Source: Candidatus Cloacimonadota bacterium
GTDB taxonomy: Bacteria; Cloacimonadota; Cloacimonadia; Cloacimonadales; PWNZ01
Direction: 5' to 3'
Length of the DNA: 55,766 bases
NCBI GenBank assembly: GCA_003564135.1
Contig: PWNZ01000145.1
Coordinates: 1-55,766, forward strand
Shown: positions 51,801 through 53,339 of the stretch, in pieces
Numbering within the stretch: position 1 is the stretch's first letter
Layout of the letters: the number at the start of each line of letters is the position of its first letter
Program-made: the position numbers and the translations under genes
Notes under the pieces: generated by a model
Seen by the model: the letters and a program-made list of their open reading frames with translations, nothing else
Database searches by the model: none
Told to the model about the DNA's origin: nothing

Positions 51801-53339
51801 TTATGAAAACTGCAACATGTTTTTCAAAAGATGTGAATTATTAGCAGATTCTATTGCTGTTTCGGTGGTTATTGCTCCCGCTCTAACGGCATGACGAAGG
51901 TCTTGCTCCATAGTGTACATGCCTGATTTCTTACCTCTTTGAATAATGTCGTACATCTCATCAATATTTCCTGTAGAGATCACTGAAGAAAGTTGATCAC
52001 TGTTCAGCATAATCTCCTTGACAGGAACCACTTTATTCATTCCTGAGGGGACTAATTGTATGCTTATTATTGCGGATATAATTCTTGATAAATTTTTGCG
52101 AACGATGTCGTGTTCGGTTGTAGAGTAAAACGAGATCAATTTATAGATAACCTCCACCGAACAACGGCTTTTCATGGTGGCTATTACCAAACAACCTGTA
52201 TCTACAAGTTTGATGATTGCTTCTAGTATCTCAATGCTATTAATATCTTCTATAGCAACTAAATTTGGTTTGTAATTCAAACATTTTTCTAGCCCGTCTG
52301 TGACACTGTTAACATCTCTGTATAGTTCTTGGTGTCTGACAACACTGTTCTTAGAGTCGTGGTAATACTCAATGGAATCGGAAATAATAAAGATATTTCC
52401 CGGAAGGTAGTTGTTATTTATATTGATGATAGCATCTACTAAGCTGCTTTTTCCTGATCCGGGAGGCCCTGTGATGACGACGAGGCCTGAGTTTTCATTC
52501 TTAAAAGTGATTTTGTTTATAACAGTACTGGTGAATCTCATTGATTCTATGTTTATCAGCTTTCTTCTGGTCATCTTGATACCTATCACTAATTCGTCCA
52601 TTTCAAAATACATATTTAGACGGTAACGGTATTTTACATTGTTGTCCTCGAAATCGAAATTTGATCTGATAGATTTATCTGTTATAAGAGTGTCGAACTG
52701 TTCATCGCTGAGAATATTCAGGATCATGATATTGATCTCATCTTGAGTAAATGAAAGTTGCATAGAGACAGGTTTGAAGGCCGAAAACACTTTAGCCCAG
52801 ATTCTACCCTTAGATCCCGGTCCGCCAATTTCCAGATAGTTCAGATTTTTATTTTCCATTAGCAACAGGAATGTTTTGAGTTTGTCAAACAGTTTTTCTC
52901 TTAATTCTATATTTGTATTAACTTTTTCTTTCATTCTTCTCAGTTTTTCAGCTGTAGATGAGTGAAATAGTTTTTTTCTTTCTTGGAGACCTAGCTTTAT
53001 AACAGAGATGAAGTCAACCATTTTAACAGGCTTAGTTAAGAAACGGAATGCTCCATAATTTAACGCTTGACGAGTATAATCCATATTGTCGAATCCGGTG
53101 ATTATGATCACTACCGCATCGGGGTCAAGCATTTTTAATATTTTAAGGAATTCAACGCCGTTCATTTCAGGCATAAATATGTCTGTCACATAAAGATCAA
53201 ACTGTTCATTAGAGACTAAATTGAAAGCCTCTTGCCCGTTTGCTGCTTCAGAAACTTCAAGATCTTCTTCTTCGAGAAAGCTCTTAAAGAGCTCTCTTAT
53301 TTCCTGTTCATCATCAACTATTAAAATTTTTGGTCTCAT
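51801..53339 (-). CDS. Receiver domain fused to a degenerate PilT/PilU-like ATPase
   Basis: N-terminal REC (VDDE, TDIFMP, ITG, TKP); PilT fold with Walker A GPPGSGKS, but Walker B region PNLVAIEDINS and His box GC...TMK; C-terminal G...GM.TMEQDL; downstream of pilB. Confidence 0.85.
   Translation of the reverse strand: MRPKILIVDDEQEIRELFKSFLEEEDLEVSEAANGQEAFNLVSNEQFDLYVTDIFMPEMNGVEFLKILKMLDPDAVVIIITGFDNMDYTRQALNYGAFRFLTKPVKMVDFISVIKLGLQERKKLFHSSTAEKLRRMKEKVNTNIELREKLFDKLKTFLLLMENKNLNYLEIGGPGSKGRIWAKVFSAFKPVSMQLSFTQDEINIMILNILSDEQFDTLITDKSIRSNFDFEDNNVKYRYRLNMYFEMDELVIGIKMTRRKLINIESMRFTSTVINKITFKNENSGLVVITGPPGSGKSSLVDAIININNNYLPGNIFIISDSIEYYHDSKNSVVRHQELYRDVNSVTDGLEKCLNYKPNLVAIEDINSIEILEAIIKLVDTGCLVIATMKSRCSVEVIYKLISFYSTTEHDIVRKNLSRIISAIISIQLVPSGMNKVVPVKEIMLNSDQLSSVISTGNIDEMYDIIQRGKKSGMYTMEQDLRHAVRAGAITTETAIESANNSHLLKNMLQFS

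Follow-up and report, generated by a model that had tools for sequence, protein, structure and literature searches.

Introduction

The known inputs to type IV pilus motors are cyclic di-GMP (c-di-GMP) domains on PilB or MshE and separate motor-binding proteins of the receiver or PilZ/FimX type. In this study, a protein with a receiver domain fused to a PilT-like ATPase was analysed. Its gene lies at 51801..53339 on the minus strand of a 55,766-nucleotide stretch of DNA from a Candidatus Cloacimonadota bacterium (contig PWNZ01000145.1, assembly GCA_003564135.1), referred to below as the window, and encodes 512 amino acids followed by a stop codon (P0001). We propose, at a probability of about 50%, that the protein regulates the type IV pilus machine as a PilT-like subunit that is gated by phosphorylation and does not serve as a motor. 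The subject bears on how bacteria choose among pilus extension, retraction and holding.

PilT and PilU are similar to this protein in their two-domain fold. The template modelling (TM) scores, taken relative to the target, were 0.83–0.90 against G. metallireducens PilT4 (6ojy), P. aeruginosa PilT (3jvv) and PilU (9n32). Walker A, the Asp-box glutamate, the first arginine finger, and the location in a pilus cluster are also in common, and the protein descends from the PilT of the lineage. However, the Cloacimonadota protein adds an N-terminal receiver and scores below the cut-off of the PilT/PilU family model TIGR01420. In addition, the Walker B Gly-Glu pair, both His-box histidines, the second arginine finger, the Asp-box proline and four further arginines are replaced.

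The MshEN-type PilB, MshE and GspE proteins likewise have a sensory domain N-terminal to a T2SSE-family ATPase, and a second pilus cluster of the same genome encodes such a PilB. In MshE, the c-di-GMP input domain is carried on the pilus ATPase, according to the accessible part of the report (PMC7288161). However, the signal in this class is c-di-GMP rather than phosphorylation, the ATPase is an active assembly motor and the input domain belongs to another family. The NtrC1 and DctD regulators combine a receiver, a helical connector and a ring-forming P-loop ATPase, and they contain the nearest solved receivers. Their output is a sigma-54 domain of the AAA+ class (ATPases associated with diverse cellular activities), whereas the Cloacimonadota protein has a PilT-like output, no DNA-binding domain and a connector derived from the N-terminal extension of PilT. 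A two-component input directly to PilB and PilT is known from DrdR of Xanthomonas, a stand-alone receiver acting on both motors, and from the PatA-type proteins PixG and PixH of Synechocystis. As far as the accessible parts of these reports go, those receivers are separate proteins that bind an active motor. In contrast, the present receiver is fused to a remodelled subunit derived from a motor.

Domain architecture and fold

The receiver domain occupies residues 1–120 (52980..53339, minus strand as for all parts of the gene). Pfam Response_reg (PF00072) covered residues 5–114 with an E value of 3.5e-30 and 104.9 bits (cut-off 30.2). D9 and D10 of the acidic pocket, the aspartate D53 as acceptor of the phosphate (in the motif TDIFMP; codon at 53181–53183), T81 and K103 are invariant across 26 full-length orthologues, and F100 and K103-P104 are also invariant or nearly so. 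We take D9, D10, D53, T81 and K103 to be the counterparts of D12, D13, D57, T87 and K109 in CheY numbering. In a phmmer search against the sequences of the Protein Data Bank (PDB), the nearest solved structures of the receiver were of the NtrC1 type (1zy2 with E 1.7e-20, and 1ny5). No Pfam match to Sigma54_activat was obtained in the protein.

A helical connector follows at residues 121–165 (52845..52979), with helices at 129–142 and 144–163 in the AlphaFold2 (AF2) model. The initial annotation had described the joiner as a charged helix. A helical connector is indeed present. However, it was not newly acquired as a linker, since its counterpart in the alignment is the N-terminal extension found in the 410-residue PilTs of this lineage.

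The PilT-like N-terminal domain comprises residues 166–262 (52554..52844), as delimited by alignments and Foldseek. In this domain R240 is kept and the second arginine finger has become K255. The PilT-like C-terminal ATPase domain extends over residues 263–512 (51804..52553) and was recognised by Pfam T2SSE, TIGR01420 and Foldseek. The T2SSE match (PF00437) at residues 263–431 had an E value of 2.4e-14 and 53.2 bits against a cut-off of 24.9, and covered only profile positions 120–279. The NCBIfam model TIGR01420 matched residues 196–502 at 189 bits, which is under its cut-off of 319.1. The canonical PilT of the window is likewise under this cut-off, with 306.7 bits. The phmmer search against the PDB sequences gave Aquifex PilT (1.3e-32) and P. 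aeruginosa PilT (6e-32), and PilU was also matched.

The AF2 model built from the 26 orthologues had a predicted local distance difference test score (pLDDT) of 85.7. Foldseek superposed residues from about 150 to 512 on PilU, PilT4 and PilT over about 355–370 residues, with the TM scores given above. Because this match spans both PilT domains, a full two-domain PilT fold with its N- and C-domains is predicted behind the receiver. The combination of an intact phosphorylatable receiver and a full PilT fold, which had been proposed from the letters of the DNA, agrees with the invariant receiver residues, Pfam, AF2 and Foldseek.

Remodelled catalytic site

In PilT-like ATPases, a glycine stands in place of the Walker B acid and the catalytic glutamate comes next (McCallum et al. 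2017, PMC5424180). The accessible part of the same report states that the Asp-box glutamate coordinates Mg, that two arginine fingers, whose spacing in PilB is 15 residues, touch this glutamate and the phosphates, and that the His-box histidine touches the gamma-phosphate. The arginine beside Walker B, R206, is described as normally invariant in the available portion of another report, and R206S was found there in a hyper-piliated V. cholerae strain (PMC6762196).

Motif changes were read from phmmer alignments to Aquifex PilT, P. aeruginosa PilT and the window's own PilT. Alignment columns were then compared among the 26 family members, 42 single-domain PilTs (330–430 residues) and four other receiver::PilT fusions. 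The canonical set consisted of all 42 proteins, from 66 candidates among the matches of the whole analysis, that hit the window's PilT at E ≤ 1e-20. Forty reference columns were used, each at least 90% conserved among the 42.

The nucleotide-binding part of the site is well preserved. Walker A, GPPGSGKS at residues 291–298 (52446..52469), is intact, and its G291, G296, K297 and S298 are invariant in the 26 orthologues. The Mg-binding Asp-box glutamate E324 is retained in all 26 and the first arginine finger R240 in 23. The reference columns kept by the family are R238, R240, G285, G291, G296, K297, N309, E324, D342, P358, G382, T388, L429, E442 and G473.

The catalytic part is different. In the Walker B region, residues 358–367 (PNLVAIEDIN; 52239..52268), Gly-Glu-x-Arg is changed to Glu-Asp-x-Asn. 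The stretch EDPDIILVGEMRD is replaced by YKPNLVAIEDINS, and the canonical DPDxxxxGEMRD reads KPNLVAIEDINS. In the former His box, residues 380–390 (DTGCLVIATMK; 52170..52202), TGH...TLH has become TGC...TMK, so that the first histidine is a cysteine and the second a lysine. The Asp box is altered from IEDPIEY to ISDSIEY, QRE to HQE and ALR to CLN. The changes in Walker B, the His box, QRE and ALR, together with the kept Walker A, had been listed in the initial annotation, and each was seen in the alignments. The missing arginine of the late GGRV motif had been listed as well. It is absent here, but its position falls outside the 40 reference columns. The motif AIRNLIRE was rejected as a discriminator, as the canonical PilT of the lineage already deviates from it (AIVNNNISEIY).

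Most replacements are shared by the family. The second arginine finger R255 is lysine in 25/26 orthologues, the Asp-box proline P322 is serine in 25/26 and R337 is glutamine in 25/26. Lysine replaces R183 in 20/26 and R400 in 22/26. T293 is changed to proline, alanine or serine, and T300 to leucine in 23/26. R355 is mostly replaced, by aspartate, histidine, threonine, serine and other residues, and D359 is asparagine in 18/26. The Walker B glycine G364 is glutamate or aspartate in 24/26, and R367 is replaced by varied residues, with arginine kept in seven. The first histidine, H383, is cysteine, serine, threonine or alanine in 25/26, and the second, H390, is lysine in 13 and arginine in the other 13. 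At the catalytic position E365, aspartate is found in 21 orthologues and glutamate in five. Therefore, contrary to the initial annotation, the site of the catalytic glutamate is not empty: the position is acidic in 26/26, and the residue before it is acidic in most members.

As judged from these columns, the nucleotide- and Mg-binding residues appear to survive in P0001, whereas those for catalysis and inter-subunit coupling do not. The label "hydrolysis-dead" is unproven. A slow or switch-like ATPase seems as likely as a dead one, because the acidic residues at 364 and 365, the Asp-box glutamate and the lysine or arginine stand-ins are compatible with slow or altered hydrolysis.

Origin, distribution and selection

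A word-indexed search of 5.8 billion proteins gave the 26 full-length orthologues, which have 510–516 residues and 50–89% identity, besides two shorter family entries, P0012 (443 residues) and P0028 (293 residues). After the orthologues, the score dropped from 565 to 205 bits, where the ordinary 410-residue PilTs begin. When the representatives of 1.84 billion clusters at 50% were searched exhaustively with HMMER, one full-length member (P0018) and one 272-residue piece at 40% identity (P0121) were obtained.

A quick IQ-TREE tree of the PilT parts was calculated from 60 rows: 13 members spanning the family, 41 single-domain PilTs and the window PilT, four other fusions and, as the outgroup that roots the tree, the PilB of the window. 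The family forms a single clade with 100 in the Shimodaira–Hasegawa approximate likelihood ratio test (SH-aLRT), on a stem of 1.28 changes per column. Its sister (SH-aLRT 99) is a nine-row clade of PilTs of about 390–430 residues, which includes the window's own PilT. A GGPG..W insertion and the N-terminal extension are common to the family and this sister clade. The tree position, the long stem and the common insertion and extension indicate that a resident PilT was duplicated, that the receiver was fused directly onto its N-terminus, and that a burst of changes was followed by stasis. The four other receiver::PilT fusions fall in two other places of the tree; therefore, the fusions are independent.

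The named sources of the orthologues are Cloacimonadota metagenome-assembled genomes (MAGs), apart from one contig of 8.4 kb (L002, JBBAFS010000070.1) from a MAG labelled Sphaerochaetaceae. This contig encodes a 66%-identical orthologue with the end of pilB directly upstream. Because the same pilB end lies there, it is probably a misbinned Cloacimonadota contig. The gene is carried by 14/232 Cloacimonadota genomes (11/151 high-quality ones). The carriers belong to six families of the window's order, and the three largest families gave 0/98, 0/62 and 0/21. The PilT of the lineage is present in 168/232 genomes. Most genomes of the phylum that have this PilT lack the gene, which makes it an accessory rather than a core component. 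Thirteen of the 14 carrier genomes also hold the lineage PilT, and the remaining genome is 68% complete. One genome (G123) has two family copies, L013:8001-9566 at 45% identity and L004:8001-9542 at 56%. The L013 copy, at the pilC-pilB site, is the more diverged: R240 is methionine, K255 is asparagine and the Asp-box Asp-Ser is Glu-Leu. The better-conserved L004 copy sits away from pilBC.

The ratio of non-synonymous to synonymous substitution rates (dN/dS) was determined by the method of Nei and Gojobori (NG86) for four congeneric genomes (L005–L008). The five computable pairs gave 0.025–0.042. Only L006 against L008 had an unsaturated dS (0.79), and dS between the window and L001 was saturated. 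In the L006–L008 pair, dN/dS was 0.042 for the whole protein, 0.014 for the receiver, 0.031 for the connector, 0.036 for the N-terminal domain and 0.052 for the ATPase domain; PilB of the same pair gave 0.015. The protein is 69% identical to its L001 counterpart, compared with 66% for PilT and 73% for PilB.

These values bear on the explanation that the gene is a decaying duplicate, a pseudogene or an annotation artefact. Its low profile scores would fit decay, since T2SSE gives only 53 bits against 120 for the window PilT and TIGR01420 gives 189 against 319.1. However, the canonical window PilT also misses the TIGR01420 cut-off, the AF2 model is confident, and the same replacements recur across the 26 orthologues. 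The frame is open in every full-length orthologue and in all 15 genomic matches ("stops inside: none"), and dN/dS is about 0.03–0.04. The gene is maintained by purifying selection. The low dN/dS and the open frames exclude decay, and with the common replacements they refute the pseudogene reading, which we regard as extremely improbable. The initial annotation had described an intact gene in the pilC-pilB string, and an intact, selected gene at this place is supported by a dN/dS of about 0.04 and by synteny. Orthologues with intact motifs together with relaxed selection here, which would have spoken against that annotation, did not turn up: 26/26 carry the changes.

Proposed function

The protein is a response regulator in which a duplicate of PilT, the resident retraction ATPase, serves as the output domain. 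Its catalytic site was remodelled after the duplication and fusion, and selection has since held it in place. The capacity to bind ATP is probably retained, because Walker A, the Mg-binding Asp-box glutamate and one arginine finger are kept. Fast cooperative hydrolysis would have been lost with the replacement of the Walker B Gly-Glu, the gamma-phosphate histidine, the second finger and the arginine beside Walker B. In the proposed regulator, a slow or inactive subunit encoded with pilC and pilB, phosphorylation of D53 would alter the oligomeric state or the access to the PilC/PilM platform. As an outcome, PilB and PilT would be blocked, permitted or handed over between. The action could proceed via occupancy of the PilC/PilM platform or via contact with PilT or PilB. 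The analysis establishes the domain architecture, motif states, conservation, selection, synteny and evolutionary origin. By contrast, we infer that the protein binds ATP with less than motor-grade hydrolysis and forms rings; its target and the sense of its effect, as a brake or a licence, are likewise inferred. Co-assembly with PilT or competition for PilC, as suggested in the initial annotation, would be ways of acting on the motor, and its hydrolysis-dead brake is treated here as a hypothesis.

Such a regulator is reasonable because NtrC1-type receivers gate rings and inactive PilT keeps a function. In the NtrC1 type, the receiver controls how the rings of a different class of ATPase assemble. 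Stand-alone receivers such as DrdR, which can act on PilB and PilT directly, are a further precedent. As for PilT, its inactivated form still functions as the partner needed by PilU, according to the accessible part of the report (PMC6762196). A more specific version, which is tentative and on balance doubtful, is a phospho-switchable PilT-like ring that binds ATP and performs no work. The phosphorylation state of D53 would decide whether this ring sits on the PilC platform or leaves it, or whether it poisons PilT hexamers. If this were true, extension and retraction would be under direct two-component control by a workless PilT-like ring that acts as a clutch or brake, a principle undescribed for type IV pili.

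Several observations weigh against a non-motor regulator. The family Walker B reads hhhh[E/D][D/E] and resembles the classical Walker B of other ASCE (additional strand, conserved glutamate) ATPases. Five orthologues still have glutamate at the catalytic position. The replacements are themselves conserved and keep the charge: aspartate stands for glutamate, lysine for arginine, and lysine or arginine for histidine. Most PilT-bearing genomes manage without the gene (14 against 168 of 232). No orthologue of the hybrid histidine kinase at 46826–50167 was found at E ≤ 1e-120 in 231 other genomes of the phylum, with three candidates scored per genome, and no conserved kinase neighbour was found across the loci. 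Lastly, co-folding of residues 151–512 with the window PilT scored 0.32 against 0.00 for the best control, and the runs share 0% of their contacts. The mark used in co-folding was reached by 58/80 solved complexes and 2/110 mismatched pairs, and scores of 0.60 or lower were given by only 7/80. The partner pLDDT was at least 84, and any pass could stem from the likeness to solved PilT hexamers. Co-folding was given no weight as evidence of PilT binding.

The first and the third of these points would suit an ATPase that still works in retraction (or extension) under the control of phosphorylation, but with a catalytic site of non-canonical form. In such an enzyme, E364 and D365 would serve as a classical Walker B acid and a catalytic carboxylate, and K255 and K/R390 would replace the arginine finger and the gamma-phosphate histidine. 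The stand-ins are conserved to a high degree (K255 in 25/26, K/R390 in 26/26, acidic 365 in 26/26 and acidic 364 in 24/26), Walker A and the Asp-box glutamate are intact, and the ATPase domain is under purifying selection (dN/dS 0.052). Canonical-site receiver::PilT fusions also exist elsewhere, which makes receiver gating of an active PilT a recurrent design. On the other hand, many of the reference columns defined by the 42 canonical PilTs are altered together, and the stem of 1.28 fits a changed function. The second paralogue L013 also lacks the first arginine finger and the lysine at 255. An active ATPase is considered rather unlikely, though it is the main rival.

An adaptor instead of a blocker is another candidate. 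Bound to the platform, the protein would bring in or switch on another ATPase only in its phosphorylated form; candidates are the 406-residue PilT and the 351-residue PilT of the second pilus cluster. PilU offers a precedent, since it needs PilT and yet works with PilT inactivated in Walker A/B, as stated in the accessible part of the report (PMC6762196). Two further PilT-type genes are present in the genome, and the weak co-fold with the window PilT (0.32 against 0.00) points in the same direction. However, the co-fold runs have no contacts in common, and sequence alone cannot separate an adaptor from a blocker. We consider the adaptor improbable.

The phosphorylation-gated regulator is preferred to these alternatives. 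The family would be a natural experiment in which a retraction ATPase has gained a phosphorylation input, with the residues for fast hydrolysis rewritten and those for nucleotide and Mg binding kept. If the protein is a gate or an adaptor, it follows that paralogues with a remodelled catalytic site can regulate pilus motors, as is the case for other ring ATPases. It would also offer a compact handle on platform occupancy, through D53 alleles or beryllofluoride (BeF3-).

Other receiver fusions

Receiver::PilT proteins are also found in other phyla. They include P0218, which clusters with HXT17076.1 from a Gemmatimonadaceae MAG, as well as P0132 and P0308–P0319. These proteins have the same two domains in 482–618 residues. 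They differ from the Cloacimonadota family in their canonical residues, their separate places in the tree and the lack of the GGPG..W insertion and N-terminal extension of the Cloacimonadota/Calditrichota-type PilT. Four representatives came from the exhaustive HMMER search and 15 further ones from a profile search. All 19 keep the Asp-box proline and glutamate, both arginine fingers, Gly-Glu-x-Arg and the second histidine, and 16/19 keep the first histidine. Because the sampled fusions are canonical, the remodelled site appears peculiar to the Cloacimonadota family, within this sample of 19.

In the Atlas, clusters with Response_reg and T2SSE, with or without MshEN, have 59, 81, 80 and 3005 members. 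No paper on receiver::PilT or receiver::PilB fusions was found in a literature search whose coverage excluded subscription journals, supplements and about 1.7 million PMC articles. The initial annotation knew of no described example. As far as papers are concerned this held, but proteins that combine a receiver with T2SSE are frequent among database entries. Fusions of a receiver to PilT are thus not new in themselves, and on the present comparison only the remodelled version seems distinctive. The family draws attention to this wider set of receiver::T2SSE fusions.

Proteins of about 710–760 residues with two T2SSE/PilT-like units in one chain (tandem PilT-PilT) were also noticed (P0123, P0125, P0126 and P0276–P0307). 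One further tandem protein, P0275, is labelled as firefly (Abscondita terminalis), and bacterial contamination of that assembly is probable.

Gene model and genomic neighbourhood

The open reading frame (ORF) at 51801–53339 is present as initially annotated, and 26 full-length orthologues support its extent. It starts with an ATG at position 53339, preceded 6 nt upstream by the ribosome-binding site AGGAG. The strand had been given wrongly: the ORF is on the minus strand and is the last in the order pilC, pilB, ORF. A terminator-like hairpin is located at 51730..51745 (minus strand), 56 nt past the stop codon, and its match to the consensus is weak. Directly upstream, with a 60-nt gap, lies the gene of a pilB-like assembly ATPase of 596 residues (53400..55190, minus strand; identified by Pfam, NCBIfam and synteny). 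No Pfam match to MshEN was found in this PilB at E ≤ 0.01. After a further 40-nt gap comes the 3' part of pilC (55231..55764, minus strand; Pfam T2SSF), which is cut by the contig end. The same-strand order is thus pilC, pilB, the receiver::PilT-like gene, the hairpin and a MatE gene.

In a tblastn search with the window's neighbours, pilC, pilB and the gene are on one strand in 11/13 Cloacimonadota loci. One of the two other loci is cut inside pilB, and the other is the additional copy that lies at a different place of its genome. In six loci, an insert of 2.4 kb stands between pilB and the gene. It is located at L007:5646-7985, and inserts of the same size are in L005, L006, L008, L010 and L011. 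Only the L007 insert was translated. It contains three ORFs (131, 193 and 442 residues) with hydrophobic N-termini and no Pfam match, which may encode pilin-like or minor-pilin-like proteins.

The canonical PilT of the window (38757..39977, plus strand) has 406 residues and all catalytic motifs intact, and it is a member of the clade that gave rise to the fused paralogue. It is followed by PilM-like, GspM-like and secretin genes (39980..44418, plus strand; Pfam and NCBIfam). In L001 and L013, the pilT, PilM-like and GspM-like genes lie divergently beside pilC, pilB and the receiver::PilT-like gene, whereas in the window they stand, with the secretin gene, 12 kb away (38757–44418). The 546-residue product of the gene directly after pilT (39980–41620, plus strand) has no Pfam match and only a faint match to the Amuc_1101-family PilM-like proteins (E 2.4e-6), which suggests an unusual PilM of this pilus system.

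A second, more canonical pilus cluster is present in the same genome (G000 contig C140, L017:3502-17012). It encodes an N_methyl pilin, a 351-residue PilT, PilM_2, PilO, a secretin, a 1001-residue Big_1/invasin-like protein, a 417-residue PilC and a 568-residue PilB with an MshEN domain. It is tempting to imagine one pilus system with a c-di-GMP input and the other with a phosphorylation input.

A hybrid histidine kinase of 1113 residues is encoded near the gene on the plus strand (46826–50167). It has a GAF match, three PAS matches, HisKA, HATPase_c and a receiver. It was considered as the cognate kinase and rejected on the ground of the orthologue search in the 231 other genomes described above. 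The genes downstream vary, with MatE in the window and a nucleotidyl transferase and a radical SAM (S-adenosylmethionine) protein in L007. In L003 and L013, a PilS/PilR-like pair follows the orthologue at a distance of 4–6 kb on the downstream side. In the window, two ORFs of 463 and 703 residues at 16796–20590 (minus strand) are matched, by size only, to the PilR-like sigma-54 response regulator and the PilS-like kinase of L003 and L013.

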